Shown here in pieces: positions 27,725-64,000 of a stretch of 64,000 nucleotides of DNA (its first letter is position 1; the number at the start of each line of letters is the position of its first letter). The notes beneath the pieces are model-generated. The model worked only from the letters and a program-made list of their open reading frames with translations. It did not search any database and was not told where the DNA came from. Source of the stretch: Chrysomallon squamiferum (lineage: Eukaryota > Animalia > Mollusca); NCBI GenBank assembly GCA_012295275.1, contig CM022676.1, positions 8,866,001 to 8,930,000 of the forward strand, written 5' to 3'. Position numbers and translations under genes: made by a program.

Positions 27725-28614
<890 letters not shown>

Positions 28615-28843
28615 TTTATATATATATATGCTATTACTATAAAATTCATCTACGGGTGCCAAATTAATGGAAAATATTTGTTTTCACGTTAGCCTTTTAA
28701 TTCAGATGTTAACAGCTGTGAACATTAATCACCGTTAAAGTCATATTTGAAGAAGATTTGTTTATATCGTTTCTGTTGCAGTTTGAATTTGACCTTTTTT
28801 CCTATGACAGTTATTTGTTCTGAATGATAATGTTATCGTATTA

Positions 28844-29549: not shown

Positions 29550-30701
29550 TTCTCCAGACAATTATTCATCTCTCTCTCTGGAACATACTACATCAGTCTT
29601 CTTGTAGTGGCTACCTCATATGTAACATTTACCTCCTGCTGTGCAGTGATTTTTCTGTAACATTATGTACTTCGTGTTAGTAAGCTGATATTTCATATAT
29701 AGCAATAATTAACACAGCTACTGTTCAATGTACGGAATTATTTTAATATTCAGAAATCGTTTATAAGTTGATATATTTTAATATCTGAAAATGTTTATCA
29801 TATTAAAAAGCATAATTGAAAAATATTTTAGGTATTTTGAAATGTTGAAGATATTATTTGGTAATATTGTAGGCATCTGGATATTTTTGTAGATATTCAG
29901 AAATATTATGAATATCTCGATTTGTGGCTCATATTTGGAAATGTTATAGATAATTAGAATCACCATATCTATAAAGGCTGTAGATTATACGGAATTTTGT
30001 AGATACTTGGAAAGGTTGTAGGATCTGGAAATGTATGTGTCAGACGTGTAAACATTTAGAAACAGTCAATTAAATTGCTTACTGCCACAGAACAAGTTAT
30101 TGTGTTTCCATTGATGTGACAACTTTCACATTCAGAATTGTGGATGACAACCACGTGTTTTTTTGCTGAAAGTTTTACCAATCATTTGAAACTGACATGT
30201 AAATAACACGAATAGCATCGATACCAGGAAAGCCATTATTCGGTATTTTGTATTTTCTTTTGCGTATAATACACAAGGCCTCCACTGCATTCTGTACATT
30301 AGACAATATTATCTTTTTTTTTCTTTTTTTTTTTTTTTTTTTTTCCTTTTCTGAATAATTAGTGAGTTGTTGATCTGTGAATGAAAGTGTATAAGTACAT
30401 TTTAATTCAAATGATTACCATGGACACCATTTTTTCATTTCGGGTCTTATGGTAAGTGTGAAAAGAACTATCCTCACTATGAGCTCTTCTTTTACCAGTT
30501 AATGATAATGAATCATTTATATGTTACTAGCTAAAACAAAATCAGTAGTGTTTGCTAACCCACAAGGGTTTTTCTTTTCCTATATATTGTAAATCTTGAC
30601 AACACAATCATTGTAAATATTCTTTGTAAAAAGAATGCTATATTGATTATCATAACACAAATAATAATAATAATAATCAGTATACTACTACTAATAAAGA
30701 C

Positions 30702-30733
<32 letters not shown>

Positions 30734-33565: not shown

Positions 33566-34678
33566 CTCGGTGGAAAAAGAAGGAACAGAAATGACGAGAA
33601 GAAAATTTAGGACGTCTGATGGTAATTAAATTAATCCGATTTGTATTACCATTATGAAAAGAAAACTGAAAAGTAAAACACACTGCATATGTCTTGTTTA
33701 TTCTTTTATTTTGTCACATACTGACTGTGTGTTTTTCAACTGAACTAATGAGTCTGTCAGACAGACACACAGACAAACACACACACGAACACACATACAC
33801 AAAAATAAAATAGAAATAAGATTATAATCAAATAACACTAATAAAGATCAGAAAACATGTGTAATCTGTTATTACTTGCTTTATATTAAATTACATCTAA
33901 AAATGAAGATAATCTGATTTCTATAGCATTATGAAGATAATTAGAATCACCATATCTACAAAGGCTGTAGATTATACGGAATGTTGTAGATACTTGGAAA
34001 GGTTGTAGGATCTGGAAATGTATGTGTCAGACGTGTAAACATTTAGAAATAGTCAATTAAGTTGCTTACTGCCACAGAACAAGTTATTGTGTTTCCACTG
34101 ATGTGACAACTTTCACACTGAGAATTGTGGATGACAACCACGTGATTTTTTTGCTGAAAGTTTTACCATCATTTGAAACTGATATGTAAATAACACGAAT
34201 AGCATCGACACCAGGAAAGCCATTATTCGGTATTTTGTATTTTCTTTTGGGTATAGGACACAAGGCCTCCACTGCATTCTGTACATTTTTTTATTTTTTT
34301 ATTTTTTTTGCTTTTCTGAATAATTAGTGAGTTGTTGATCTGTGAATGAAACTTTATAAGTACATTTTAATTCAAATGATTTTACCATGGACACCTATTT
34401 TTCATTTCGGGTCTTATGATGAGTGAGAAAAGAATTTTCCTCACTATGAGCTCTTCTTTTACCAGTTAATGATAATGCATCATTTATATGTTACTAGCTA
34501 AAACAAAATCAGTACACAATATTCATAGTGTTTGCTAACCCACAAATGTTTTTATTTTCTTATATACTGTAAATCTTGACAACGCAATCGCTGTAAATAT
34601 TCTTTGTAAAAAAAATGATATATTGATTATCATAACAAAAATAATAATAATAATCAGTATACTACTACTAATAAAGAC

Positions 34679-34712
<34 letters not shown>

Positions 34713-34749
34713 TAATAATAATAATCAGTATACTACTACTAATAAAGAC

Positions 34750-34796
<47 letters not shown>

Positions 34797-37700
34797 GAGA
34801 TATCTATTATGCAAAGAACTAAATTCTTCATCTTATTACAACTGTAGTTGCAAAAACTACTACTACTAAAACTTACATAATTTCTCGCAGTTTACACGTT
34901 GCTTTTGAGCTGATAACAAAATATTTAGCGCTAACTGTAACATTATCACAAGGGTCATCAAGGAGATCACATCCCTCCCCATCATTAATGTCATGAACAA
35001 CTGGTGGAATTCGAATATCAGTGGAGCAGTCAGCACCCATAAAATTTCTCTCACAGACACAAGTTCCTGATTAAAAGATAACAAAATAAAAAAATAAAAT
35101 AAAAAACACATAAAGAATGGTGATAGTTAAAAGCAAGGCATAAAGGCATTCTTTTTTTATTTTTTTTTTTTAGTATTAAAATAAGGCATAGACTAATCTA
35201 CAATTTCAACATGAAGTAAAAGAAATATATGTTAAACAGAAAGTTCACATGATGCCATACACCTGAGCAAATATCACTCTATCGTAAGAAAATGTTTATA
35301 ACGGAAAATAATTATTTAACTGAGTAAAATAAATCAAATGTACACCACTCTTAATTTTGTTCATGATTATTGTATATTTATTGTAGACTCGGCTTTAAAC
35401 TTGGGAAATATGTTGAGTTAAAGCTAAGAAAGCAGACGATGAAAAGAAACAAACCATTAGCACACTGCCCTCTATGTGAACAGTGAGATGGACAGGAAAC
35501 TCTGATGACTTTAGTCAGTATCGATTCTTTCCCTTTTGTCTCATGAAATTCTTCATTCATAACTGCTTCAGTTACGCAAGAAGATTTCACATTTTCTATC
35601 GCTGATTCAGCAAAGATGGTTTGCCCAGATGCCTGAATAACAGAAAACTAATTTCATTTACTAGAATATGTTTCGTTTTTACTTTTTTGCAGAGCTGATA
35701 CATCTTCAGTCTTCTGTGTATTATTTCTTATTGAAGGGAAAGGGAATATAAATGTCAAGGTTCTTCTGAATAGAAAGTGTGCAGCAGATTTATGTTCTCT
35801 TAGTTTTTAATCATATGTATGAACCAGTGAACTTGTAGTTCAAAAATATATTAAGAATATTGTTTTAATAAGTAATTAAGATTTTTTTTAAATGTCTTTC
35901 TTTCTCTTTATTTGCATTGTTTAATTCCACTAACACCATGTTAATTCTCTGAGAAAGTGTAGCTGGACTGATTCCAGTTTCAACAAACAACTGTTATAAA
36001 TGTAAACATTTTATCTTGTTGTTTAGAAGGACAAACAAAAGCAGATATCATGGCTATCTGCACATCATGAACAGGATTGTTGCAATCCGTATAACTGTCA
36101 TACAGGGCAGGTTTGTAAATCTTCTGTCTGCTGTTGCACAAAAAGTGGCCAGCCCAACCTAACTTCTTTGAGAGGATTCTCACCACGTCTTCGTATAGTT
36201 TTGAATCGAGCTCGAAATCATTGGCAGCGTTTATAAAATTACAGTGACGACAGAACACATAAAATAATTGGGGAGATATGAGGTCAAAACCTGGAGGCCT
36301 TGTCCATCTGAACTAAAAATTAAAATTTCAGAAGTTTGTATTTTAACCATTATGCTGTATGAAGAAATAATCAAATCCTCACCATGCTGCTAAATATACA
36401 GTCTTCCAGATTTCCACCCACAAATTTGCTTTGAACTGATTGACACTTTTTTGATTGTGAGAATAATTTCTCACATATCCGTGTTGCTAGGGATTTTGCA
36501 ATGGTCTGCGTAGTATTTGATACATCCTGTGGGAAAAAGTGAAGAAAAAATGTAAATACTGACACATATCTCACTTAACAGAAATTACAAAAAATAATAA
36601 TAATGACAACAAGAACAGTAGCTCTGGAAATTCAAATTCAGAAAGCCAAAGCTAAATTAGGAGTGCCATTTAGTAGAACGTCTCCACCCTAAATTCAATC
36701 ATTTAATATTATTCACGTTATTCTATTTGGGAACAGGGAAATGCAATCTCTTGAGTACAGGGTTGTACCAGTTGATCAAGATAGAACAAAGTTTGTGTGT
36801 TTGTATGTTGAAAGAGAAACACAAAGAGAGAGAATGTTAAGAGGTGATCAATTTGCTATCAATTCAGCTCAACATAATGCACCAAAAGACTCACTTTTTT
36901 TTTTCTGGAACTGCTGTGAACATTGTCTTTACTTTCAGCATAAGTGATAGATCTCTTTTTCTTGCGAGCTCGGAACATGCATCGTCTCCTATTTGGTTTT
37001 TCCACTGTTTTAGGTTTGATAGGCTTGACAGAACTCACGCTCCGCTATTGATTCGTCGCAGGACGGATGTTTATATATTCATTTGTTTAGGACAATAACA
37101 CAGGAATGAAACGTCTTTCCACTTCTTGAGGGTGTTACAGTAGTTTATTTCTCAATAAGAGATTCTCCGAATCAAATAATCTGTCAGAACATTAAACTGT
37201 GTCACTTGTTTGACATATCCATCATGCTCACATCAGAAAATATTAACAGAATACAATACCACTTCTACCACTATTATTATTATCAGAACAACTAAGTATG
37301 CCATACCTAATCATAACAGCACATCTGGATACATATATTTTTCAAAACATACCGTACTTTATTCATAATAATAAAAAAATAAAAAAAATAAAAATGATGG
37401 CAAAAAGAAAAGAAAAGAAAAAAGAAACAAATTAAATTAATAATTTCTGACAAGTACTTCCAAGAGTTCACGAAGTCCTTTTCATTTTTTTTCGGCAGCT
37501 TGTCACTACCACGCAGATATCTTTTCCCTGTACCAAGTTCTTCACAGAGACCTCTTGTACTTTTATAATCCAGGATATGAAGGGTAGATGAACACATTTA
37601 TGAATTTGTTGTTAAAATATATACGTAAGAGAACTCTTGCTTCTGTAGGAAAGTATACCTCAGTGGAAAAAGAAGGAATAGAAATGACGAGAAGAAAATT

Positions 37701-38033
37701 TAGGACGTCTGATGGTAATTAAATTAATCCGATTTGTATTACCATTATGAAAAGAAAACTGAAAAGTAAAACACACTGCATATGTCTTGTTTATTCTTTT
37801 ATTTTGTCACATACTGACTGTGTGTTTTTCAGCTGAACTAATGAGTCTCTCAAACAGACACACAGACAAACACACACACGAACACACATACACAAAAATA
37901 AAATAGAAATAAGATTATAATCAAATAACACTAATAAAGATCAGAAAACATGTGTAATCTGTTATTACTTGCTTTATACTGAATTACATCTAAAAATGAA
38001 GATAATCTGATTTCTATAGCATTGTGAAGATAA
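29948..38033 (+). repeat. Direct tandem duplication, units 29948-33934 and 33935-38033
   Basis: Collinear high similarity along both units. AGATAA occurs at the left end, the junction and the right end. Confidence 0.9.
34050..37658 (-). pseudogene. VWDE-like gene 3' segment, disrupted; copy 2
   Basis: Tandem duplicate of copy 1 with the same VWD-exon frameshift. Better preserved in places: TCVCERNFMGADCSTDIRIPPVVHDINDG and EALCPIP...ISVSNDGKTFS. Confidence 0.7.
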
Positions 38034-39623: not shown

Positions 39624-41066
39624 ATGACTAAAGTACGTCCGTCTCGAAAAAACCTCCACAAAACGTTTAAGAAGAAATGGTGGTTTTATTTGCTTTTTGT
39701 GCTTTTCTTCACGACTATTCTCGATAAAACAGGTAAACTGTTAATTGTGGCTAGAATTTCACAAATAATTAAAATAATCCTACACGAAATCAATACGAAA
39801 ACGAAGCCATGAGTACGCAAGAGCTTTTAATTCAGTTAATATTTCAGCCAGTGACAGTATTTAGTTTCTTTGTATTTACGGAGGCAGTTATATCATATAT
39901 TCACTCAGTGATGATGTGATGAATATAATCAACACTTACATTCTGTATGTGACGAATTCACTCAGTATTTGTAGGCAGGCATATTTTAATGAATGTATTG
40001 TCCATTTCTTATTAGTGATGTTATCATAAATTAATTCAGTATTTCTCATCAGTACTTTATTATAATTATTATTATTATTATTATTATTATTTTTTTGGTG
40101 ATGTTATGTTCTGTTTCAAGTCACTGTATTATAATGAATGTTCTCAATATTTGTATACATTCATATTTTAATTAACTTACGTTCTATATCAAGTCATTGT
40201 ATTGAGATGACGTCACTGAATGTTCGAAGACAATCATATTAAAGTTAATTCATATAGTATATCTGGTCAGCGGTATTAGGTTTTTTTTTTTTTCATTCAG
40301 CATTAGAATTCATTCATTCATTCATTCATTCATTTTCAGATGCTCCGGGATTACATACCCGTATCCTAAGAATAAACAAATTTGAGCTTCCATTTGTAGC
40401 TAAAGGGGTGTTTGATTGTGAGAGACAGTTCGTACACTGCATATGGGAATATCAGGTATGCACTAGAATGCTTTGTGGCTTGGAGTCTAAACTGTTATCC
40501 TGAAGAGCGATTGTTCGCAAGAAGGCTGATCTGACTCCAGCTGTAGCCTACAATTGTTACTGACTGAATATTTATAGAGTATGCGTTATATTTAAGATCA
40601 TTCGGTAGAGCACTTTGGGCCCTGAATTTAAAATCTTTGTTATTTTTTTAATAGTGACAACAACAACAAAAGCAACTGCAGATAAATAGATAACAAGATA
40701 GATAGAAAGACAGACAAACAGATTGATAGATAGACAGATGGACTGATCAACAAATAACTAAAAAAAGAAATAAAAATTAATTATTATAGCAGCAGCCTTT
40801 TTACTAATTGTACCTTTTTTTTTTTGATTAACCGTTTTTGTTCTCCTGCTTTGTATTATCATTATTATTATTATTATTATTATCATTATTATTATTATTA
40901 TTATTGTAGTTGTTGTTGTTGTTGTTTTTGCTGTTGCTGTTGTCGTTCTTATAGTTGTTGTTGCTCTTATTGTTGTTGTTCCTCTTTTTTTGGTCTTCTG
41001 TTCTTCTTCGTATTATTACTGTTATTGTTATTGTTGTTGTTGTTATTGTTATTGTTGTTGTTGTTG

Positions 41067-41148
<82 letters not shown>

Positions 41149-41531
41149 AGCTAGAAGGTAAAAAACGTATTGCGTTTCCTTCCAAGTTCTCAACAAGTCA
41201 AAACCTGACACCTGGCTGCTATTCAGTGTATACGACTACGACAGTATGCACACTGTATTTGGAGAGCAGACCTTCTTTTCTAGTTGGCAAAGGTTACATC
41301 GTATTAAGGACTCAATCTGGTTATAGAGTATCTACACAGTTGTTAACTTTCACAGGTAAATATAGGAAGGAAATATTTGTTGATGGTAAACATTAGGGTA
41401 ATGCAGTGAACATTTTCCTCTCATAAACTTTGTCACATTAATCGTGAGACGTGATGAATTGCATTCAGACAATGCCACAGCGATTCATCGATTGTGCAAA
41501 TCGGCTAAACTATGTACGTGATGACGTAACA

Positions 41532-41573
<42 letters not shown>

Positions 41574-41875
41574 GTTGTTGTTGTTGTTGTTTTTGTTGTT
41601 ACCGTTATTATTATTATTATGAATATGATGATTATTATTGTTATTATGATTATTATTATGATTACAATTATTATTTCAGATTCCAGTGCCAATAGGGCTC
41701 GTTCTCCAGCCAAACTTCCTAATGGTACGACTCCTGCTGCATGTTCTTCCACGCCACTGTTTTTTATAATGTAAAACAATTACTTTTTATTTCAACATAC
41801 GATCGTATACATAATTAGATATCTACATGCATGCCTACTTACATACCTACATACATACATATATATAAACAGAGA

Positions 41876-41963
<88 letters not shown>

Positions 41964-42288
41964 AAATAAATGATGGAAGACAAAATAAAGGCCTGCTTCG
42001 AGGGATGCGATGGTTACACTCGGTTATTGAACAATTTCTTTGCGACGTTGTCCTCATGTCCGAAGGTAACGTCGTCTGCCTACGAAACACGACCGAATGG
42101 GTGCCATATGTTCGAATCTTGTCAGCGGCGTTTCTTAATAAAATTTCTGAATGGTTTGTTTAACATTCAAAATCGTTAGCGATCACATTATCTACTATGC
42201 TTTCAATCTACTGATTCATTCATTATTTTTGTTCTCTTTTATTTCTAGTTTTGCCGTCGCCGTCATCTTCGTCATTGATTGGCCATAG
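39624..42288 (+). CDS. Family B gene B1: 186 aa putative GPI-anchored surface protein; exons 39624-39732, 40340-40455, 41151-41355, 41680-41770, 42249-42288
   Basis: [36 protein letters not shown]|[39 protein letters not shown]|[13 protein letters not shown]...[30 protein letters not shown]...LLTFT|[31 protein letters not shown]|[12 protein letters not shown]. All GT-AG; phases 1,0,1,2 close exactly (561 nt). Confidence 0.72.
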
Positions 42289-42577
42289 CTGATTGTCACA
42301 AACTTTCATTAACAGCAACGATAAATTTTATATTCGCAACTTTCGCGAAATCTGTTTTCATCTTGAACAGAAAATAGCTGAAACCATTATGATGACAACG
42401 GTACTTTGATATCAAGGCGCCATTTTCTATGTTAACCTCATTCAGAGTTAGTTCTAACAATTTCTTACACGAAATAATCGATTATATTCAAACAATGTTG
42501 ACTGTATCGATTTCATTGAAGTATAGGTATGACTCAGAATTTTTACATCTAGATCGAAATTACTCTTTTTCTTCTTC

Positions 42578-43984: not shown

Positions 43985-45208
43985 ATGACTAAAGTACGTC
44001 CGTCTCGAAAAAAACTCCACAAAACGTTTAAGAAGAAATGGTGGTTTTATTTGCTTTTTGTGCTTTTCTTCACGACTATTCTCGATAAAACAGGTAAACT
44101 GTTAATCGTGGCTAGAATTTCACAAATAATTAAAATAATCCTACACGAAATCAATACGAAAATGAAGCCATGAGTACGCAAGAGCTTTTAATTCACTTAA
44201 TATTTCAGCCAGTGACAGTCTTTAATTTCTTTGTATTTACAGAGGCAGTGATATCATGAATACACTTAGTGATGGTATAATGAATATAATCAACACTTAC
44301 ATTCTGTATATGACTCAGTATTTGTAGACAGTCATATTTTAATGAATGTATAGTCCATTTCTTATTAGTGATGTTATGATAAATTAACTCAGTATTTCTC
44401 ATCAATATTTACTTTTTTACTTTTTGTTATCTTATGTTCTGTTTGAAGTCACTGTATTACAATGAATTTTCACATTTTTTTGTACACATATTTCAATTAA
44501 CTTACGTTATATATCAATTCATTGTATTGAGATGATATCACTGAGTGTTCCAAGACAATCATATTAAAGTTAATTCTGGTCAGCGGTATTAGGTTTTTTT
44601 CATTCAGCATTAGAATTCATTCATTCATTCATTCATTTTTCAGATGCTAGAGGATTACGAACCCAGCTCTTTCAATTAGACAAAGTTCAGCTTCCATTTG
44701 AAGTTGACGCGGTGTTTCATTGTCAGAGACACTATGTGCAGTGCGTGTGGGAATATCAGGTATGCACTAGAATCTTTTGTGGCTTAGAATCTAAATTGTT
44801 ATCTTGAAGAGTGATTGTTCGCAAGAGGGTTCATCTGACTCCAGCTGTAGACTACAGTTGTTACTGACTGAATATTTATAGAGTATACGTTATATTTAAG
44901 ATCATTCGGTAGAGCACTTTGGGCCCTGAATTTAAAATCTTTGTTATTTTTGTAATAATGACAACAACAACAACAAAAGCAACTGTAGATAAATAGATAA
45001 CAAGATAGATAGAAAGACAGACAAAGAGAATGATAGAGAGACAGTTACACTGATCAACAAATAACTAAATAACTAATAATAATGAATTATTATAGCAACA
45101 GGAGCCGTTTTACTACTAGTAGTAGTAATAACATGAGTAGTAATACCGTACACTATACTTTTTTCTTTATTATTGTTTAACCATTTTTTCTCCTTTTTCT
45201 TCTACTTC

Positions 45209-45261
<53 letters not shown>

Positions 45262-45402
45262 GTTGTTGTTGTTGTTGTTTTTGTTGTTATTGTTGTTCTT
45301 GTTGTTCCTTTTCTTTTTCGTCTTCTTCTGTTCCTCTGTTCTTCTTGTTATTATTATGGTTCTTATTATTATTATTACTTCTTGTTGTTGTAGTTGTTGT
45401 TG

Positions 45403-45448
<46 letters not shown>

Positions 45449-46331
45449 TGTTATTATTATTATTATTATTATTGGGGTTTTTGTTGTTGTTGTTATTATG
45501 ATTATTATAGTTAGAAGGTGAAGAGACTGTTGAGTTTCCTTCCAATTTCTCAAAAAGTGAAAAAAATACAACTGGCTGCTCGGGAGTGTATTCGACTACG
45601 ACAACATGCACACTGTCTTTTGATAACAGACCTTCTTTTCTAGTTGGCAGAGGTTACATCGTATTAAAGACTCGATCTGGTTATAGAGTATCTACACAGT
45701 TGTTAACTTTCACAGGTAAATATAGGAAGGAAATATTTTTTTCATGGTAAACATTAGGATAATGCAATGAATATTTTCCTCTCATAAACTTTGTCACATT
45801 AATCGTGACACGTGATGAACTGCATTCAGACAATGCCACAGCGATTCATCGATTGTGCAAATCGGCTAAACTGTGTACGTGATGACGTAACAACGGTACA
45901 CATGACGTCGTCCACTAGATTTTAAACTGTGTTTTCGTTATACTTCTTCGCTCAATAAGATTGCACCGCTAAATAATTAAGTAAATAAACTAAAGAAAAT
46001 AAATTATTATTATTATTATTATTATTATTATTGTTGTTGTTGTTGTTGTTTTTGTTGTTACCGTTATTATTGTGATTATGAATATGATTATTATTATGAT
46101 TATTATTATTATTATTACTATTATTATTTCAGGTTCCAGTGCCAATAGGGCTCGTTCTCCAGCCAAACTTCCTAATGGTACGACTCCTGCTGCATGTTCT
46201 TCCACGCCACTGTTTTTTATAATGTAAAAAAATTACTTTTTATTTCAACATACGATCGTATACATAATTAGATATCTACATGCATGCCTACTTACATACC
46301 TACATACATACATATATATAAACAGAGAGTG

Positions 46332-46364
<33 letters not shown>

Positions 46365-46908
46365 GATGGAAGACAAAATAAAGGCCTGCTTCGAGGGATG
46401 CGATGGTTACACTCGGTTATTGAACAATTTCTTTGCGACGTTGTCCTCATGTCCGAAGGTAACGTCGTCTGCCTACGAAACACGACCGAATGGGTGCCAT
46501 ATGTTCGAATCTTGTCAGCGGCGTTTCTTAATAAAATTTCTAAATGGTTTGTTTAACATTCAAAATCGTTAGCGATAACATTATTTACCATCATTTCAAA
46601 CAGAACAAATGTCTTAATGAAATTTAAAAATTGTTCATTGTGATTAGTACCATCATTCAAAAAGAGTGAAATTCCTACAGAATCTTCCATAATTCACCTA
46701 AACTTATATCCAGAATGGACATCAGTAAACTAATACTTTGTTTACTTTTTATTTTTATTTTTTTCAGATATAATGACAAAACATTTCAATTATTTATACA
46801 TTCATTCATTAATACATGTTTTCAACCTACTGATTCATTCATTATTTGTTTTTCTCTTTTATTTCTAGTTTTGCCATCGCCGTCATCTTCGTCATTGATT
46901 GGCCATAG
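43985..46908 (+). CDS. Family B gene B2: 186 aa putative GPI-anchored surface protein; exons 43985-44093, 44644-44759, 45511-45715, 46133-46223, 46869-46908
   Basis: Same exon sizes as B1 (109/116/205/91/40). DARGLRTQLFQLDKVQLPFEVDAVFHCQRHYVQCVWEYQ|LEGEETVEFPSNFSKSEKNTTGCSGVYSTTTTCTLSFDNRPSFLVGRG...|...STPLFFII|[12 protein letters not shown]. Confidence 0.72.
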
Positions 46909-47359
46909 CTGATTGTCACAAACTTTCATTAACAGCAACGATAAATTTTATATTCGCAACTTTCGCGAAATCTGTTTTATTCTTGGACAGAAAGTAGCTG
47001 AAACCATTATGATGACAACTGTATTTTGATATCAAGGCGCCATTTTCTATGTTAACCTCATTCAGAGTTAGTTCTAACAACTTCTTACAAGAAATAATCG
47101 ATTATATTCAAACAAGGTTGACTGTATCGATTTCATTGAAGTATAGGTATGACTCAGAATTTTTACATCTAGATCGAAATTACTTTTCTTCTTCTTCAAT
47201 TATTATTATTATTATTAAATTGCTCATTTGTAAATGATTCATTAGAAGTGTTTTTGGTAAACGATGGTTACTGTTAATGTTTCAAAGAAATAAAAGTTTT
47301 GTTTAAAAGTTTCTGTGTTTTTTGTCTCATATGCCTATGTATATGTACATGTGTATACA

Positions 47360-47809: not shown

Positions 47810-48039
47810 CTAGCAGTAGTAGTAGTAGTTGTGGTATTGTTTTTGTTCCAATAATTGGCATACGAGAATGACATTCATACGTCATGTAGAATTCTTTTCT
47901 GAAAGCGGTGTGACTGATATTCTTTGCTTGCATCGCGGTACAGTCTTTGTACTGTAATATTAACTGGCCGAAATTTAGAAACACATGATTTTGTTTTCAT
48001 CTCAGTAGAGCTATTTTCCATTTACTTTTCTTAACTTAG

Positions 48040-48088
<49 letters not shown>

Positions 48089-48538
48089 TAACTATAATAA
48101 TAATAATAATATTAATAAAAAAAATAATAATAATTATAATAATAATAAATTAAGGACATCAGTTTTAGAGCTCCGTTAATAACAGTCCGTATACTGAATT
48201 ACAGTACATAAAATAAAGGAATAAATTTAAAGGTTTCTTTTCTTTAACAAGTTAATTTCTTAAATTTGTAGGAACTGTTAGAGAAAGAAATGTCAAATTC
48301 AGTACTGATTTTATTAATAGAAGAAATTCAAAATATTTAAAATCATTTAAGACTCGTGACGTAGATAGGAAACTAGAGCTAATAATGGCTCATTAACTAC
48401 GATAAAGATGTTACAACTTCTGGTGATGCCAAAATACAAACTTTCATTACAATAGCAGGCTAATACAAGTATGCGTGTACGTATCTATGTATGTGGGTCT
48501 GGGTGTGTGTGTGTTGTTCTAGGTGATCTTAACTACAC

Positions 48539-48592
<54 letters not shown>

Positions 48593-48598
48593 AGAAAA

Positions 48599-50542
48599 AT
48601 GACTAAAGTTCGTCCGTCTCGAAAAAAACTCCACAAAACGTTTCAGAAGAAATGGTGGTTTTATTTGCTTTTTGTGCTTTTCTTCGCGACTATTCTCGAT
48701 AAAACAGGTAAACTGTTAATCGTGGCTAGAATTTCACAAATAATTAACATAATCCTACACGAGATCAATACGAAAACGAAGCCATGAGTACGCAAGAGCT
48801 TTTAATTCACTTAATATTTTAGCCAGTGACAGGATTTAGCTTCTTTGTATTTACGGAGGCAGTGATATCATGAATTCACTCAGTGATGGTATAATGAATA
48901 TAATCAACACTTACATTCTGTATATGAGGAATTCACTCAGTATTTGTAGACAGTCATATTTTAATGAATGTATAGTCCATTTCTTATTAGTGATATTATT
49001 AAATTAACTCAGTATTTCTCATCAGTATTTAATTTTTTATGTATTTATTTATTTTGTGAATTTATGTTGTGTTTGAAGTCACTATATTATAATGAATTTT
49101 CACAATATATATACACATTCATATTTTAATTAACTTACGTTCTATATCAAGTCACTGTATTCAGATGAAGTCACTGAATGTTCGAAGACAATCATATTAA
49201 AGTTAGTTTATATAGTATATCTGGTTAGCGGTATTAGGTTTTTTTCATTCAGCATTAGAATTCATTCATTCATTCATTCTTCAGATGCTCCGGGATTAAG
49301 AACCCATCTCTTGACTTTAGACACATTTCAGCTTCCATTTGAAATGAAGGCGGTGTATATTTGTGTGAGAGACACTCTATGCAGTGCATATGGGAATATC
49401 AGGTATGCACTAGAATGCTTTGTGGCTTAGAATCTAAATTGTTATCTTGAAGAGTGATTGTTCGCAAGAGGGTTCATCTGACTCCAGCTGTAGGCTACAA
49501 TTGTTACTGACTGAATATTTATAGCGTATTCGTTATAGGTAAGATCATTTCGTAGAGCTCTTTGGGCCCTGAATTTAAAATGTTTGTTATTTTTTAACAG
49601 TGACAACAACAACAACAACAACAGCAAGACTAAGGTAGATAAATAGATAGATAGAAAGAGAGACAATTACACTGATCGACAAATAACTAAAAAACTAATA
49701 ATAATGAATTATTATAGCAACAGGAGCCGTTTTACTACTAGTAGTAGTAATAACATGAGTAGTAATACCGTACACTATTCTTTTTTTTTTCTTTTTTTAT
49801 TGTTTAACCGTGTTTTTCTCCTTTTTCTGCTTCTTCGTATTATTATTATTATTATTGTTGTTGTTGTTGTTGTTATTGTTGTTGTTGTTGTTCTTATTGT
49901 TGTTCCTTTTCTTTTTCGTCTTCTTCTGTTCCTCTGTTCTTCTTGTTATTATTATGGTTCTTCTTCTCATTATTATTATTGTTGTTGTTTTTGTTGTTAT
50001 TATGATTATTATAGTTAGAAGGTGAAGAGACTGTTGAGTTTCCTTCCAATTTCTCAAAAAGTGAAAAAAGTACAGCTGGCTGCTCGAGAGTGTATTCGAC
50101 TACGACAACATGCACACTGTCTTTTGATGAAAGACCTTCTTTTCTAGTTGGCAAAGGTCGCATCATCTTACGGTCTCAAACGGGATATGAAGGATCTTCC
50201 AAGTTGTTAACTTTCACAGGTGAAAGATATAGCAAATATTTTTTTCATGGTAAACATTAGGATAATGCAGTGAACATTTTCCTCTCATAAACTTTGTCAC
50301 ATTAATCGTGAGACGTGATGAATTGCATTCAGACAATGCCACAGCGATTCATCGATTGTGCAAATCGGCTAAACTATGTACGTGATGACGTAACAACAGT
50401 ACAGATGACGTGGTGCACTATATTTTAATTTGTATTGTTGTTGTAGTTCTTCATTAAATAAGATTGCACCGCTAAGTAATTAAATAAATAAACTAATGGA
50501 AATAAATTACTATTATCATCATCATCGTCGTCATCATCATCA

Positions 50543-50589
<47 letters not shown>

Positions 50590-50912
50590 TTTTATTTATT
50601 ATTATTATTATTATTATTTATTATTATTATTATTATTGTCGTGTGGTTCTATTTCGTAAACATTTTGCACTTTACTTTCTCATTATTATTTATAATACAA
50701 TATATATTAATTACATTAATCGTCATTATCATTATTATTATCAATGTTATTATTACTGTCATCATCATTATTATTACTATGGTTTCATGTGGTTCTCTTG
50801 TGATATAATTATTGCACTTAACTTTCTAATTATTATATCTGTAAAGAAATATGTTATTATTATGATGATCGCCTTTATAAATACATTAATCCTCATCATC
50901 ATCATTATGATC

Positions 50913-50975
<63 letters not shown>

Positions 50976-51284
50976 TCAGCTCCCAGTACTGCTTCGAGAG
51001 GTACGACTCATTCAGCATTGAAATATCTTTTCCTTTTTTATAATCATTATCATCATCATTTCCTTCTTCTTCTTGTTGTTTTCTTCCTATGACTATTATT
51101 TGTAGTTACTATTATTACTATTACAATCACTATCACTATTGCTATTGTTATCATTATTGTTATTATTATTGTCATCATCATCATCATCATTATTATTACG
51201 ACTATTATTCTGATTATTATTATTATTATTATTGTTATTATTATTATTGTCATTATTATTATTATTATTATTATTGTCATTATG

Positions 51285-51325
<41 letters not shown>

Positions 51326-51673
51326 TGTGATTGTTGTGTGGATCTATTTCGTAAACATTTTGCACTTTACTTTCTCATTATTATTTATAATACAATATAT
51401 ATTAATTACATTAATCGTCATTATCATTATTATTATCAATGCTGTTATTACTGTCATCATCATTATTATTGTGATTGTTTCAGCTCTTCTTCTTATAATA
51501 ATTATTATCACCATCATTACCATCATCATTATTATTACTGTGGTTTCATGTGGTTCTCTTGTGATATAATTATTGCACTTAACTTTCTCATTATTATATC
51601 TGTCAAGAAATATGTTATTATTATGATGATCGCCTTTATAAATACATTAATCCTCATCATCATCATTATGATC

Positions 51674-51727
<54 letters not shown>

Positions 51728-51975
51728 TCAGCTCCCAGTACTACTTCGATAGGTACGACTGATTCAGCATTGAAATATCTTTTCCTTTTTTATTATCATC
51801 ATCATCATAATTTTTTCTTCTTCTTCTTCTTGTTTTTTTATTGCTATGACTATTATTTGTTCTGTTACTATTATTACTATTACTATCACTATTACTATAG
51901 CTATTGTTATCATTATTGTTATTATTATTTAATCATCATCATCATCATTATTATTATTTTTATATTATTATTCTG

Positions 51976-52017
<42 letters not shown>

Positions 52018-52265
52018 TCAGCTCCCAGTACTACTTCGATAGGTACGACTGATTCAGCATTGAAATATCTTTTCCTTTTTTATTATCATCATCATCATAA
52101 TTTTCTTCTTCTCCTTCTTGTTTTATTGCTATGACTATTATTTGTTCTGTTACTATTATTACTATTACTATCACTATTACTATAGCTATTGTTATCATTA
52201 TTGTTATTATTATTGTCATCATCATCATCATCATTATTATTATTTTTACGACTATTATTATTATG

Positions 52266-52309
<44 letters not shown>

Positions 52310-52553
52310 GATGATGATGATTATTATTATTTCAGCTCCCAGTACTACTTCGATAGGTACGACTCATTCAGCATTGAAATATCTTTTCCTTTTTTATTAT
52401 CATCATCATTATTATTACTGTGGTTTCATGTGGTTCTCTTGTGATATAATTATTGGTCTTAACTTTCTCATTATTATATCTGTAAAGAAATATGTTATTA
52501 TTATGATGATCGTCTTTATAAATACATTAATCCTCATCATCATCATTATGATC

Positions 52554-52631
<78 letters not shown>

Positions 52632-52880
52632 TCAGCTCCCAGTACTACTTCGGGAGGTACGACTCATTCAGCACTGAAATATCTTTTCCTTTTTTATCAT
52701 CATCATCATAATTTTCTTCTTCTTCTTCTTGTTTTATTCCTATGACTATTATTTGTTCTGTTACTATTATTACTATTACTATCACTATTACTATAGGTAT
52801 TGTTATCATTATTGTTGTTATTATTGTCATCATCATCATCATCATTATTATTATTTTTACGACTATTATTATTATGATTA

Positions 52881-52914
<34 letters not shown>

Positions 52915-52915
52915 G

Positions 52916-52956
<41 letters not shown>

Positions 52957-53001
52957 GATTATTATTATTATTATTTTTATTATTATTATTATTATTATTA
53001 C

Positions 53002-53046
<45 letters not shown>

Positions 53047-53392
53047 TGTGATTGTCGTGTGGTTCTATTTCGTAAACATTTTGCACTTTACTTTCTCGTT
53101 ATTATTTATAATACAATATATATTAATTACATTAATCGTCATTATCATTATTATTATCAATGTTGTTATTACTGTCATCATCATTATTATTGTAATTGTT
53201 TCAGCTCTTCTTCTTATAATAATTATTATAGCATCATTGCCATCATCATTATTATTACTGTGTTTCATGTGGTTCTCTTGTGATATAATTATTGCACTTA
53301 ACTTTCTCATTATTATATCTTTTAAGAAATATGTTATTATTATGATGATCGCCTTTATAAATACATTAATCCTCATCATCATCATTATGATC

Positions 53393-53443
<51 letters not shown>

Positions 53444-53690
53444 TTTCAGCTCCCAGTACTACTTCGGGAGGTACGATTCATTCAGCACTGAAATATCTTT
53501 TCCTTTTTTATCATCATCATCATAATTTTCTTCTTCTTCTTCTTGTTTTATTCCTATGACTATTATTTGTTCTGTTACTATTATTACTATTACTATCACT
53601 ATTACTATAGCTATTGTTATCATTATTGTTATTATTATTGTCATCATCATCATCATCATTATTATTATTTTTACGACTATTATTATTCTG

Positions 53691-53722
<32 letters not shown>

Positions 53723-53960
53723 GATGATTATTATTATTTCAGCTCCCAGTACTACTTCGATAGGTACGACTCATTCAGCATTGAAATATCTTTTCCTTTT
53801 TTATTATCATCATCATTATTATTACTGTGGTTTCATGTGGTTCTCTTGTGATATAATTATTGCTCTTAACTTTCTCATTATTATATCTGTAAAGAAATAT
53901 GTTATTATTATGATGATCGCCTTTATAAATACATTAATCCTCATCATCATCATTATGATC

Positions 53961-54008
<48 letters not shown>

Positions 54009-54253
54009 TCAGCTCCCAGTACTACTTCGGGAGGTACGACTCATTCAGCACTGAAATATCTTTTCCTTTTTTATCATCATCATCATAATTTTCTTCTTCT
54101 TCTTCTTGTTTTATTCCTATGACTATTATTTGTTCTGTTACTATTATTACTATTACTATCACTATTACTATAGCTATTGTTATCATTATTGTTATTATTA
54201 TTGTCATCATCATCATCATCATTATTATTATTTTTACGACTATTATTATTCTG

Positions 54254-54307
<54 letters not shown>

Positions 54308-54529
54308 TCAGGTCCCAGTACTACTTCGGGAGGTACGACTCATTCAGCACTGAAATATCTTTTCCTTTTTTATCATCACCATAATACTTTTCTTCTTCTT
54401 CTTCTTGTTTTCTTCCTATGACTATTATTTGTAGTTACTATTATTGCTATTACAATCACTATCACTATTGCTATTGTTATCATTATTGTTATTATTATTG
54501 TCATCATCATCATCATCATCATTATGATC

Positions 54530-54601
<72 letters not shown>

Positions 54602-54859
54602 TCAGCTGCCAGTTCTACTCCGGGAGGTACGACTCATTCAGCATTGAAATATCTTTTCCTTTTTTATCATCATCATCATAATTTTTTTCTTCTTCTTCTT
54701 GTTTTCTTCCTATGACTATTATTTGTACTGTTACTATTATTACTATTACTATCACTATTACTATAGCTATTGTTATCATTATTGTTATTATTATTGTCAT
54801 CATCATCATCATCATCATTATTAATATTTTTACGTCTATTATTTTTATGATTATTCTGA

Positions 54860-54930
<71 letters not shown>

Positions 54931-55063
54931 TCAGATCGTAATGTTACGTCAGTAGGTACCACTCCTGCTGCATCTTCCTCCACATCACTGATTTTAATAA
55001 TGTAAGAAAATTACTTTTATATGGACCTACGATCGCATACATGCATCCGTCCTATATAGATAT

Positions 55064-55098
<35 letters not shown>

Positions 55099-56010
55099 GC
55101 ACACACACACATGACTTGATTTCACTTTGTTTTCTCGTGCCAGTGCGTTCCTCACTATTGTCTATGCAATGTTATCATCATTACACGAACATATAGAACG
55201 AATTCAAGCGGTAAAATACATACATAGAAACACATACATAAGCATACATACAGATACATACATACACATAAAATCATACATTGAAACATAAGTAAACATA
55301 AAGAATTGAATAGGATTTATTTTTATGCTTATCATTTTAGCAGAAAAAAAGACAATTCAAAATGCATAACGATTAATATTAGAAAGTCTTGTTTTGTTTC
55401 CAATAAATAATTATTTAAACCATTTCTTTGGAAATTTCTTAATAACGTACTAAAGTGACATAAAAGTGGACATTCGACCTACATTTTATAACAGTAAATT
55501 TTCCTAAGAAATCTTCACAATTTCTAATTTCATTTATTCATTACGTCTTTTACAGCCTGCATATGAAAACATAAAAAATTCTTAATAAAATTATAAAATG
55601 TTTTGCCATTATGTTTAACACCGTCATTCGAAAAGTAAGAAATTTCTCAACAAAATTTCATAATAGTTAGCGATCACATTAACTATCATCATTTCAAACA
55701 CAACAAATGTCATAACGAAATTTAAAAATTGTTCGCCATTGTAATTACTACCATCGTTCAAAAAGAGTGAAATTCCTACAGAATCTTCCACAGTTCACCC
55801 GAACTTATATCCAGAATGAACATCAGTAAACTAATACTTTGTTTACTTTTTATTTTTTTTTTTTTTTTTTTTTTTAATGAGTAAACATTTCAATTATTTA
55901 TAAATTGATTCTTTAATTCATGCTTTCAATCTACTGATTCATTCATTATTTTTTTCTCTTTTATTTCTAGTTTTGCCATCGCCGTCATCTTCGTCATTAA
56001 TTGGCCATAG
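48599..56010 (+). CDS. Family B gene B3 with micro-exon-encoded Ser/Thr/Pro stalk; 2-nt frameshift in exon 2 (pseudogene, null allele or assembly error)
   Basis: Exons 48599-48707, 49285-49402 (118 nt vs 116 in B1/B2), 50015-50219, ten 21-nt exons in 50980-54626, 54935-55001 (DRNVTSVGTTPAASSSTSLILII), 55971-56010 (FAIAVIFVINWP*). About 248 aa if the extra dinucleotide at ~49363-49372 is removed. Confidence 0.6.
50500..54934 (+). repeat. Higher-order tandem repeat of (TAT/CAT)n microsatellite blocks, period ~270-330 bp, carrying the 21-nt micro-exons
   Basis: Conserved core TTTCAG-CTCCCAGTACTACTTCG(AT/GG)AG-GTACGACTCATTCAGCA(T/C)TGAAATATC recurs ten times, separated by two or three recurring spacer types. 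Confidence 0.9.
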
Positions 56011-56295
56011 CTGTTTGTCACAAACTTTCCTTAACAGCAACGATTTATTTTATATTCGCAACTTTCGCGAAATGTATTTTCATCTTGGACAGAAAGTAGC
56101 TGAAACCATTATGATGACAACGGTAATTTGATATCATGGCGCCATCTTCTGTGTTAACCTCATTCAGTGTTAGTTCTAACAATTTCTTACACGAAATAAT
56201 CGATTATATTCAAAAACAAGAGTCTGTTTCGATTTCATTGAAGTATAGGTATGAATTTTTACATCTAGATCGAAATTACTCTTCTTCTTCTTCTT

Positions 56296-56347
<52 letters not shown>

Positions 56348-56893
56348 ATTGCTCATTTGTAAATGATTAAAATAAATGTTTGAATGTACATGCATGTGAT
56401 TAAAAAGGTTGAATTAAAACACAGAAATACTGAACATGAAACTAACAATGCAGTGGTTATTATTCATAAATGGTTTCCAACTGATTTCTAAGAAAGTATA
56501 AATTGTAAAAATATTCTGATTATGGTCTGTATGTTCACTAAACTGTTATTAATTTGGAAATTTTAGAGGCACATTTGTCAAAATATGAAATAAACATTCG
56601 AGAGAAAAACCCAGAAAAAACAAAGGCATAAATATACATAAAATAAAGTTAAAATAAACAATAATAATAATCACAACACTATCAATAATAATACTAAAAT
56701 ATTTTTAAAAAGACAATAAATAAATAAAGAAATACATAAAATACGTTAATAAGTAACTTAAATAAATAAAATGTAATAAAAACTAAAACAACCAGAACAA
56801 TAATAATAATTAAAATAGTAAAGAATAAATCAAAACAGAAATGAAGGAAATTATATGAAATAAAGTGAATGAATGAACGAATGAATACAATTC

Positions 56894-58376
<1,483 letters not shown>

Positions 58377-60060: not shown

Positions 60061-61385
60061 CCAATGTTCCATGTATTTGAGTATTTCACACCATAAAAAC
60101 GGTGATCGGATATTTACGGTAGTACACTATGGCCAATGCTTTTTGTTTCATGTTCTGTAATATTTTTCTGTATAAGAAATGATTAACTGAACGTTCATAA
60201 GAAAGATCACAAATACTTAATATTTGTTATGCCTGAATTTCTCAACAAAAAAAAAACAAAAAATAATAATAATAATAAAAAATATTAAAAATAAAAAAGT
60301 GGCATTTTGCAAATCATCCCTTACGAACTCGTTTTCGAAATATTTTCGTCTGCTTTGCGCAGTTCGGTAAGTTCGGCAGAAATGAAATTGAGAGCTTAAA
60401 GTACCTAATTTTCTAACCGAAAGCAAATCAGTAATTCTTTTAAGAATTATAATTGCTTATAGGTTGTTGTACAGTTTCAGCAAGTTTTCTGTATTTGTAT
60501 AATGAGAAAATGCATTTCTGTTATCTGCGAATCTTGTTTTATTTATCAATAAAGACTGTAATGACGTCATTTGACACCTAAATGAAGAATATTATTCTTA
60601 TTGTCTTGTTTTGTAACTAGGTATAACATAGAGAAAAAAAAAAAAAAATGAAAAAGAAAAGACTGGAAATGAATTTCCATACGTAGAAGAAACTCAAAAA
60701 AAAAAAAAAAAAAAAAATTGAAAACTAAAACTTAGATTTGGAAAGGAAAAAAAAAAGGAGTATAATACTGGTACATACTTTGATCAACCAGCAGCCTGAA
60801 TCAGGAAGAGCGAAATGACGTCATAACGTTCCAAAAATTTTGTCGTCTATTTATATCATACCTTACAGTGAAGAAATATTTTCTTACAATTACCAGATGA
60901 TTTATGGTCCTACTTGCAATCCAGATTCTTGAATTTTCAACACACACACACATATATATATGCACACACACACACACACACACTTGGAAATGTATATAGA
61001 TGTGTGTGTGTGGGGGCGTGTTTATTTATACATATATTTATGAATCAGCTTCAAATTACTGTTTTCACAGGAGCATGTAATATGAACCATAATAAAGAGC
61101 TTCATTTTCTCTTTCCAGTGCACCGCTTGTTTTTGTTGTGATGAATCTGTACGAACTGTACGAACCTTTGTTACTTTTTAAATATCGCGTCATTGCACGT
61201 ACTCACATAGCGTGGTGTTCTTTCATACGCGTCGGAAAATATATATGCATTCGTTTCTGTCGTCACCAGAAGGCAAAGAAAAAAAAACAGTTTCATCTGA
61301 AAGAGCATAGATTTGTCTATAAAAAGTGATTTATTTATTTATTTATTTATTTATTATTATTATTTTTTTTTTTTTAAATTATATA

Positions 61386-62141
61386 CAGTGGTACCTTGAC
61401 TGACGAGTTTAATTCGTTCCGTGACCGTGCTAGTAACTCCGTTTGCCCGTATATCAAATCAAATTTACCAAATGAAATCAACTGAAATACCATTAATCCG
61501 TTGCGGAGTGTTTTCGAATAAGAAAAATGTATGTATCAATGACAAATATTGTATAACAAAAAAAAAAAGAAAAAAAAAATAAGAAAAAGAGAAGTTAAAG
61601 AAATAAATTCGTTTTGTAAAGTTTACAGGGTTAGAGGGTTTCTCCATCTTTTCATGGACAGAGGTCAGCAGCTTAGAAACTATTTTAACGGCTTTGGCTG
61701 GAGTTATAGTCTTTACCTTCTCCTTCTGCTTCAGTATGGTGCACGTCGTAAAAGTACTACGCTCGTACTGCCTAACCATGTTGACTACGCGCTCAGCTTC
61801 GCATGTTTTTCCGCGATTTCATGCTTTGATTCAATGAACATCATACACTTTTTCTTCTTCTTAGCATTGTCCTTTGGAAATTTGATAAAAATGCTGCATA
61901 AAACACGAGCACAACACGAGAGAGACGCTTCCACAGTGAGGTAACCAACGTGAAACAAACGAGTAAAAATGGGGGATGCTCGACGAATGTCGTGTTGTTC
62001 GTTGCGTCAAGTAGCCACGGCGTATCTCAAGCTCGCATCTAATTAGGATTTTGGCTCGCAACTCAAAGCCAAAAAAAAAATCGACCGGGTGGCTACTCGT
62101 AACATGGGAAGTTGGAGCACTCGTAACTCAAGGTACCACTG
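61386..62141 (-). mobile_element. Tigger/pogo-derived non-autonomous element
   Basis: TA|CAGTGGTACCTTGACTGACGAG ... CTCGTAACTCAAGGTACCACTG|TA. Minus-strand remnant MVRQYERSTFTTCTILKQKEKVKTITPAKAVKIVSKLLTSVHEKMEK. Confidence 0.85.
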
Positions 62142-62351
62142 TATGTATTTTTAACTGAATATATTTTTGTTTCGAAACTTAATAAATAAGTTTTTGTCAG
62201 AAATGAGTTTCGACAACGACCAACTACCTCAGTAAACAAGATGATGGGACGGTGCATTATGACACTTACACTGAAAATAACAGAATGAATCTATACGAGG
62301 AATAATAGATATTTACTATTATTTTTCTTCTTCTTCTTCTTCTTCTTCTTC

Positions 62352-62709: not shown

Positions 62710-63556
62710 TGCATACATACGTAAAATATATAAAAAGTAAAGTATGAAATCTACATGTAGTTAAAAGTCCAAACTTTTAATTAATTTATTCGATATATTA
62801 ATAAATCTTTAGTAATAATAATTAAAACAAATAAAAATAAACACAAAACAAAGTGAGGTTTAAAAAAGAAAAATACAATATGCTAATACACGAGTCACGT
62901 TTTGAAAGAGGTAATGATAAGTTTAAACAAATTCAAACAACCAACTCCAATTGTAGCTCATAGGAAAACACAGCTGAATCAGTAAAACGTAGATCATTGT
63001 CGATAAGTAACTTTTCTTGACGAAAAGCTAGAACCAGTCAAATTTGAAGATGCAAACTGCGACCAATCTAGAAATAAAGCAAAGAGACCCGATGAACTAA
63101 TAAAATGAAAATTCTACAATCTATGCGTAGGAATGGATTAAATGTGACATTTTCTCAGAAACATTCTAACTATTCAAACGACAGTTTCTAAACGCACTCA
63201 CAGTTGTAAAGAAATATTCGTATTATGGTCTGTATGTGCACTAAATTCTTATTAATCCGGACATTTTACAGACACATATGTCAAAATTTGAAATAAACAT
63301 TGGAAAACAATAATAACAATAATAATAAAAAGTTAAAAAATTAAAATAAATAAATAAATTAATCAATAAATGCGTTAATAAGTAATTTAATAATAGTAAT
63401 AAAAACAACAGCAACAGCAATAATAATAACAACAACAACAACACCAAAAACGACAACAACAACAACATTAATAATGATTAAAAGTGGTAATGAATAAATC
63501 CAAACGAATAAAAAAATTCACATAAAATGAAATGAATTAATTAATAAAATTCTTAC

Positions 63557-64000
63557 ATAATCAACATTAGACTATCAGGAGACGACGAAGGGCAACAGCT
63601 TATATCCACATGGCCTGAATAATAATAATAATAGTAATAATAATAATAATGATAATAATAATAATAATAATGATAATGATGATGATAATAATAATAATAA
63701 AAAAGAAGAAGAAGGAAGAATATAATGATGATCATCAATAATTGTAATTATTGCTGACCTTGTAACATAAGAATGTTAATAATAACAACACCAACAACGA
63801 CAACAACAAAAATGATAGTGGTAGTAGTAGCAGTAGTAGTAGTAGTAATAGAAGAGGAAAGCGAAGAAGAACAAGACAGTGATGATCAACAACAATCGTA
63901 GTTATTGCTCTACCTGGGAACTGGAGCATCTTGCTTTCATGCTTTTCACCGCCTGGACTCATCATAATAAGAACTGCTTTTTTTCCCACTAAGAAATGAA
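63557..64000 (-). CDS. C2: 3' part of another family B/C relative, truncated by the window edge; exons (>64000)-63914 and 63614-63557
   Basis: ...GKKAVLIMMSPGGEKHESKMLQFP|GHVDISCCPSSSPDSLMLI| with CCAG|GTAGAG, TTCAG|GC and AT|GTAAGA; phases 1 and 2 as in B. Flanks match C1 (57070-57350, 56500-56600). One extra A in the run at ~63978-63984 relative to C1 may be a frameshift. Intact status unknown. Confidence 0.55.

Follow-up and report, generated by a model that had tools for sequence, protein, structure and literature searches.

A stretch of 64,000 nucleotides (nt) from the mollusc Chrysomallon squamiferum (contig CM022676.1, positions 8,866,001 to 8,930,000; hereafter the window, with positions counted from its first letter) contains a gene, B3, in which ten islands of 21 nt lie among microsatellites between the third coding exon and the anchor exon. 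We consider it likely that these islands are tandem duplicates of the anchor exon, that at least one of them, unit 9, is spliced, and that the units each add seven Ser/Thr-rich residues to a stalk between a small ectodomain and a predicted glycosylphosphatidylinositol (GPI)-type anchor. B3 (48599-56010) is the last of three tandem paralogues, B1, B2 and B3 (Table 1), which have five coding exons in common, of 109, 116, 205, 91 or 67, and ~40 nt. The fourth of these is referred to as the anchor exon.

The islands had been described in a first-pass annotation made from the letters alone, and their coordinates, flanking sites and phase-1 peptides were all recovered. Specifically, the pattern TTTCAG-N21-GTACG has ten matches in the 64-kb window, all at the annotated positions, whereas shuffled sequences gave a mean of 0.04 matches and a maximum of 1. 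The acceptor TTTCAG, the donor-like GTACGA, a length of 21 nt and a symmetric phase (1-1) are present in 10 of 10 units. Base 8 is T in all ten, and the units end in GAG or TAG, and exon 3 in CAG. Introns between units measure 249-793 nt. As judged from the intact frames of B1 and B2, exon 3 ends and the anchor exon starts in phase 1, as annotated, and the ten units encode 70 residues, 38 of them Ser or Thr and 10 Pro, so that the predicted Ser/Thr/Pro-rich segment would indeed lie between ectodomain and anchor. When both strands were scanned with a unit plus 9 nt of flank (up to 10 mismatches in 30), the only similar sequence found apart from the ten units was the beginning of the B3 anchor exon, supporting the statement that B1 and B2 lack the array. 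The expectation that repeat masking hides the array also held, since the mapping tool skipped most of it as repeat.

Splicing was examined in contigs assembled from the short reads of four public runs, three of them of RNA and all from one study, the fourth (X3) lacking a library record. The contigs were aligned to 48000-56500 and, separately, to 50010-50480. In the longer interval they cover exons 1, 2, 3 and 5, with joints from exon 1 to exon 2 and from 55001 to 55971. The latter joint has GT..AG ends, indicating that the anchor exon is not the last exon. A 149-nt contig from run X1 follows B3 exon 3 from 50099 (with 2 differences), continues through the whole of unit 9 and ends after the first 7 nt of unit 10; the unit 9 and unit 10 pieces each place uniquely. 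Unit 9 is thus spliced at both ends and unit 10 at its acceptor, and unit 9 is a true 21-nt exon. The idea that GTACGA is mere coding sequence and never a donor was rejected for unit 9 by this same contig. Of the symmetric micro-exon splicing first annotated for the whole array, both ends of unit 9 and the acceptor of unit 10 are therefore borne out, whereas units 1-8 are unseen in RNA.

The first-pass annotation further held that any subset of units could be skipped. Were combinatorial skipping the main mechanism, one ten-unit allele would give a ladder of stalks of 0-70 residues, an account that we regard as somewhat unlikely. The same splice signals stand on all ten units, and in X1 exon 3 is joined directly to unit 9, so that units 1-8 of the window allele are passed over. 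However, X1 does not carry the window allele, from which it differs by 3 substitutions and by the absence of a frameshift in exon 2, and it may lack or rearrange units 1-8; a change in copy number would account for the finding equally well. Furthermore, the X1 contig shows no branch at the end of the B3-type exon 3, unit 9 being the sole partner, and no junction of exon 3 to a unit starting with C or to the anchor exon survives in the X1 contigs. Such an unbranched contig does not favour free combinatorial splicing; note that rare forms drop from contigs. The position at which the contig ends also bears on this question. Contigs overlap by 30 bases at branches (as at 50099-50128, with a variant at 50129), and in the X1 contig the terminal 30 bases take in the last AG of exon 3, all of unit 9 and 7 nt from unit 10. 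This is the very base at which assembly would stop if a second RNA joined a different unit to unit 9, which fits skipping, but the same end would be expected from a repeated unit 9-10 pair, from another paralogue or from the end of coverage. In addition, at least three types of exon 3 were seen in X3 and several in X1 over 50099-50268; some match none of B1, B2 and B3 exactly, indicating that the B family has further alleles or mosaic copies. A loose end in X1 before 50204 hints at a junction between an exon 3 of B1/B2 type and some part of the B3 region. Branch-point scanning was uninformative.

By alignment, the units appear to be truncated duplicates of the neighbouring 67-nt anchor exon with its downstream flank, a relation absent from the first-pass annotation. 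In alignment tests that took in units 1, 9 and 10 of the ten, each with 44 nt of flank, scores against the B3 anchor exon were 38-42 compared with shuffle means of ~14, and 0 of 500 shuffles reached the score in each of 3 tests. Against the anchor exons of B1 and B2, the score was reached by 0-2 of 500 shuffles in each of 6 tests. Without gaps, 24-25 of the first 39 bases match. The unit donor corresponds to Gly-Thr-Thr codons inside the anchor exon, and this internal site reads GAG or TAG/GTACGA in the units, ATG/GTACGA in B1 and B2, and TAG/GTACCA in the B3 anchor exon. The flank of unit 1 ends in a T-run and ATAAT, as does the anchor exon of B1 and B2, but the GT found next in B1 and B2 is missing; the copies have lost the old 3' donor. 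In the anchor exon itself this donor is in use, as seen from the joint 55001-55971 in X1 and, in X2, from a B1/B2-type exon that ends ahead of 55971. An X1 contig covers about 64 of the 67 anchor exon bases (a hand estimate from bin depth), indicating that the internal site is read through there. Because a donor in a GGT codon cuts after the first base, a phase-1 exon shortened at this point is automatically symmetric.

From these features we propose the following course of events. The Gly-Thr-Thr codons of the anchor exon (G/GT ACG A) would contain a latent phase-1 donor. The exon would have been duplicated together with flanking intron, the old 3' donor being lost in the copies, and AG before GTACGA would have made the latent site a working donor. 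A phase 1-2 exon would thereby have become a phase 1-1 micro-exon, which could multiply without breaking the frame, and in B3's own anchor exon a weaker site (C at +5) would be read through. Microsatellite-rich introns would then likely have driven unequal crossover. On this proposal, stalk length would vary mainly by gene copy and allele, B1 and B2 having no units, this B3 allele ten and X1 possibly another arrangement, and exon skipping would be a possible second layer of variation.

The organization of the introns bears on how the array grew. Written as units (U) and intron modules (letters), the array reads U1 abcdefghijk U2 abc U3 abcd U4 ahijk U5 abcdefghijk U6 abcd U7 ahijk U8 abcd U9 abck U10 abcd, in which abcdefghijk occurs twice and abcd-unit-ahijk twice. 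This order is the pattern that would be expected from unequal crossover between multi-unit blocks, and the change by unequal crossover foreseen in the first-pass annotation agrees with this higher-order duplication. The unique intron modules are nearly alike, indicating that the array is young. In fact, they are more alike (mean p-distance 0.009-0.036, that is, 0.9-3.6% divergence) than the islands themselves (0.099, or 9.9%), so the absence of stops and indels in the islands does not serve as the sign of selection it was taken for. All 7 variable island positions (7/7) are at first or second codon positions, and each changes an amino acid. In addition, an X3 contig is identical to B3 over 50239-50396 and then enters a B1-like TAT run, a hint of structural variation of this intron among copies.

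The reading frame of the window allele has to be considered together with the age of the array. The frames of B1 and B2 are open. On the other hand, B3 exon 2 has 118 nt as against 116 in B1 and B2, the two extra bases sitting in a TG run at 49362, which causes a frameshift and a stop at the start of exon 3. B3-like contigs of X1, X2 and X3 are without the two extra bases, and the two RNA contigs among them differ at 3 other places; B3-like copies with an open frame therefore occur, and the frameshift in the window reflects either a null allele or an error of assembly. These data allow an explanation in which only units 9 and 10 work, giving a fixed stalk of 14 residues, and units 1-8 were amplified recently and without selection, perhaps in an allele that the frameshift had already killed. 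In keeping with this, units 9 and 10 alone appear in spliced RNA, the intron modules are 96-99% alike on average, pointing to recent amplification, and the window allele is frameshifted. However, units 1-8 share the acceptor and donor of unit 9 and bear no mark of decay, the point at which the contig breaks off suggests that some RNA has a unit ahead of unit 9, and the amino-acid changes at all variable positions give a weak hint in the same direction. We consider a fixed stalk unlikely.

Hydrophobic stretches are found at both ends of the B proteins, in B2 near residues 19-35 and 163-186. By inspection and hydropathy, the C-terminus consists of small residues, a polar spacer and a hydrophobic run with no tail behind it. 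A GPI signal has a small-residue omega site, a polar spacer, a terminal hydrophobic run and no cytoplasmic tail. At the N-terminus (39624-39732, 43985-44093 and 48599-48707), ~18 strongly basic residues precede the hydrophobic stretch, with no obvious cleavage motif in these exons. If the N-terminal hydrophobic segment were uncleaved, the B proteins would be anchored at both ends, a topology that we take to resemble that of tetherin, and the units would then set the length of a loop. Exons 2 and 3, which encode the ectodomain, differ more between paralogues than their surroundings: the proportion of nonsynonymous differences (pN) is 0.12-0.27, as compared with 0.04-0.10 in the adjacent intron and a pN of 0.01-0.07 in exons 1 and 5. 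The proportion of synonymous differences (pS) is clearly exceeded by pN only for exon 3 of B1 and B2 (0.174 vs 0.066, P 0.04 uncorrected). Diversifying selection may plausibly have acted on the ectodomain, but gene conversion in the introns is a plausible account too. A likely role of the array would be to set the distance of a fast-diverging recognition or adhesion domain from the membrane, and the glycosylation of the stalk. Putting these parts together, we tentatively suggest, as a possibility short of an even chance, that the locus records the birth of the array, in which the asymmetric anchor exon was copied and its latent Gly-Thr donor became active, giving a 7-residue cassette that keeps the frame, expands, contracts and is skipped, and that thereby tunes the reach of a fast-evolving mollusc receptor.

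Several points weigh against the preferred reading of the units as spliced anchor-exon duplicates that lengthen a stalk. The evidence for a spliced unit is one contig from one of the three RNA runs. No unit junction was seen in X2, which covers only the 5' part of exon 3, or in X4, which has nothing on exon 3. Likewise, the RNA contigs showed no splicing of units 1-8 or from unit 10 to the anchor exon, the array being largely masked. Within 48000-56500 about half of the sequence (4434 letters) was masked and 4 joints and 36 loose ends were dropped, leaving the array unreadable; the missing cover over units 2-10 was not counted as evidence because repeats were masked there. No X3 contig was seen on 50410-50480, a gap that carries no weight. 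The ten-unit allele, with its frameshift in exon 2, may yield no protein. The direction of descent, with the long exon ancestral, would follow from two paralogues and frame logic. As to the protein, the C-terminus fits the GPI signal pattern by inspection and hydropathy only, and O-glycosylation of the stalk is likewise predicted by inspection. Pfam, homologue and Atlas searches and structure models found no homologue or fold for the ectodomain. Neither the preponderance of amino-acid changes among the island differences (P about 0.10 under neutrality) nor the difference in variability between islands and flanks (P 0.066) is significant. Furthermore, pS in exon 2 is as high as pN, so that homogenisation of introns could explain the contrast between exons and intron.

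A last point of this kind is an X1 contig with a depth of 2.8 that reads through a unit donor. It runs from unit position 13 past the donor for 99 further aligned bases and, with 7 substitutions and a 3-base gap, fits unit 5, 8 or 10 equally. This brings in the possibility that the units also serve as alternative last exons, in which read-through of the donor gives a short hydrophobic tail and possibly a second anchor signal; indeed, in 7 of the 10 units the frame stays open past the donor and stops after 36-37 residues, the last of which form a run of Leu, Phe and Val. However, a contig of this depth may stem from pre-mRNA or from DNA, the hydrophobic run is encoded by a (CTT)n microsatellite that is hydrophobic in two of three frames, and unit 9 is spliced at its donor. 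We therefore regard alternative last exons as very improbable.

The searches behind the negative result for the ectodomain were as follows. Pfam gave no match above cut-off for any exon tried, including exon 3, which encodes 68 of the ~107 ectodomain residues. A homologue search with exon 3 of B2 among longer proteins gave nothing at E 0.01. Four matches to B3 exon 3 in a search of representative sequences were rejected as artefacts, each being to a long, repetitive protein in which 4-18 short stretches together gave an identity of 26-36%. The best Atlas score for exon 3 of B1 was 0.81, and all leads were under 0.9. Structure models had a predicted local distance difference test score (pLDDT) of 32 and 39 (39 for exon 3) and were unusable.

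Table 1. Coding exons of B3, the paralogues B1 and B2, and the ten units of the array (positions in the window).
Feature	Position	Strand	Description
B3 coding exon 1	48599..48707	+	basic N-terminus and hydrophobic stretch (signal peptide or signal anchor); X1 and X2 RNA contigs over 48601-48707 join exon 2
B3 exon 2	49285..49402	+	first part of ectodomain; 118 nt, 2 extra bases near 49362
B3 exon 3	50015..50219	+	second part of ectodomain; ends in phase 1; RNA contigs from X1 and X2
Unit 1	50980..51000	+	21 nt, APSTASR; splicing not seen
Unit 2	51732..51752	+	APSTTSI; splicing not seen
Unit 3	52022..52042	+	APSTTSI; splicing not seen
Unit 4	52336..52356	+	APSTTSI; splicing not seen
Unit 5	52636..52656	+	APSTTSG; splicing not seen
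Unit 6	53450..53470	+	APSTTSG; splicing not seen
Unit 7	53743..53763	+	APSTTSI; splicing not seen
Unit 8	54013..54033	+	APSTTSG; splicing not seen
Unit 9	54312..54332	+	GPSTTSG; both ends spliced in RNA (X1 contig, unique placement)
Unit 10	54606..54626	+	AASSTPG; acceptor used in RNA (first 7 nt after unit 9, X1 contig), donor not seen
B3 anchor exon	54935..55001	+	67 nt, phase 1 to 2; internal TAG/GTACCA; RNA joint 55001 to 55971
B3 last coding exon	55971..56010	+	hydrophobic tail FAIAVIFVINWP and stop
Paralogue B1	39624..42289	+	five coding exons, open frame, no array; 91-nt anchor exon 41680-41770, internal ATG/GTACGA
Paralogue B2	43985..46909	+	five coding exons, 186 residues, no array; 91-nt anchor exon 46133-46223

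Other features of the window were also noted. A second family, A, occupies positions 1-27200 with tandem single exons for a Cys-containing domain of ~116 residues (frames 5932-6570, 13646-14080 and 18938-19327) and many partial or decayed copies; arrays of a 29-bp minisatellite at 5601-5889 and 18683-18889 lie just upstream of two of these domain exons. The A family is nearest to two mollusc-dominated Atlas clusters (score 0.95), followed by immunoglobulin (Ig) V-set clusters (0.90-0.91), which we treat as a lead, and a homologue search with an A-family exon gave nothing at E 0.01. A 3.3-kb duplication, 94.7% identical, spans 30640-33940 and 34689-38033 with frames on the minus strand, of which 31371-31547 has an EGF-like Cys motif with no match in Pfam; these frames presumably resemble von Willebrand D/EGF proteins. 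The minus-strand frame 25506-25904 has a WPPRSPDL-type motif, which we take to be that of Tc1/mariner transposases, and likewise no Pfam match. A dispersed element of 0.6-0.85 kb has three copies, 69-74% alike and one of them inverted (4055-4640, 27810-28620 and 61380-62164), and is probably a decayed DNA transposon. Beyond the B cluster, a duplicated segment (76% identical) is found at 56503-57359 and 63204-64000.

Genes in which an array of short symmetric exons serves to vary a glycosylated or repetitive segment are already known, but the source of the array is usually not visible. Here, the parent exon, two paralogues of the older form and the few bases that separate read-through from a working donor all lie within 16 kb, and the locus offers an RNA-supported case, in a mollusc rather than a flatworm, of a gene design hidden by repeat masking. 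If the proposal is true, ancestral and derived states stand side by side, allowing a direct test of how genes like SmPoMuc and the micro-exon genes (MEGs) arise. No literature matching this origin, or this design in molluscs, was found among titles and abstract openings, in which subscription papers are poorly covered.

In schistosome MEGs, the coding region is mostly micro-exons, and the family is described as limited to flatworms (PMC4350168; bioRxiv 10.1101/2023.06.21.545858). B3 shares with them tiny symmetric exons and resistance to automatic annotation, and its product, with a hydrophobic stretch near the N-terminus as a putative signal, would likewise be secreted or anchored in the membrane (PMC4350168; bioRxiv 10.1101/2023.06.21.545858). 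All ten units are symmetric (21 nt, phase 1-1), and the contigs show one spliced path, with a second suggested by the contig end. However, micro-exons make up only 28% of B3 (210 of 744 coding bases), the units are nearly identical and confined to one paralogue, with 0 in B1 and B2, and the host is a mollusc. B3 is thus not a MEG member, and the likeness to MEGs first annotated stands as a resemblance only.

Chicken BG genes, which code for surface proteins and form a cluster that expands and contracts, have runs of repeat exons of 21 nt and show both alternative splicing and read-through of introns (PMC4046983). In BG, the repeats code for heptads that lie in the cytoplasm, past a transmembrane segment, and presumably form a coiled coil, whereas the units of B3 would form an extracellular Ser/Thr stalk (PMC4046983). 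In CD46 (MCP), an alternatively spliced, Ser/Thr/Pro-rich (STP) and O-glycosylated segment is extracellular, and both the splicing and the protein size were shown by experiment (PMC2118878). That segment has 15 residues and belongs to a type 1 transmembrane complement regulator with SCR domains, not to a recent tandem array of 7-residue exons (PMC2118878). By analogy, CD46 would be the closest known function among the systems compared, and a model for a tunable stalk.

SmPoMuc of Schistosoma mansoni has a 27-bp exon 2 in tandem repeats of ~1 kb, up to 20 of them, separated by microsatellites; repeat number varies between genes, and transcripts can exceed the genomic repeat count (PMC2576457). 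Both systems carry one short exon in tandem repeats (27 bp in SmPoMuc, 21 in B3), with microsatellites, introns that are highly similar in part, and repeats that could be glycosylated; in both, the genes of a cluster vary in repeat number, down to none at all (PMC2576457). In the B cluster, the short exon lies in tandem repeats with conserved introns, 10 in B3 and 0 in B1 and B2. The comparison is one of architecture and not of sequence: B3 has five coding exons besides the units instead of the 15 exons of SmPoMuc, its repeats measure 0.27-0.81 kb, and the units lie between a Cys-containing ectodomain and a membrane anchor and would derive from the anchor exon. Of the systems compared, SmPoMuc is the closest known architecture. 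The design of the array itself is thus known and seems to be recurrent, and its visible derivation from the anchor exon is what seems to be new in B3.

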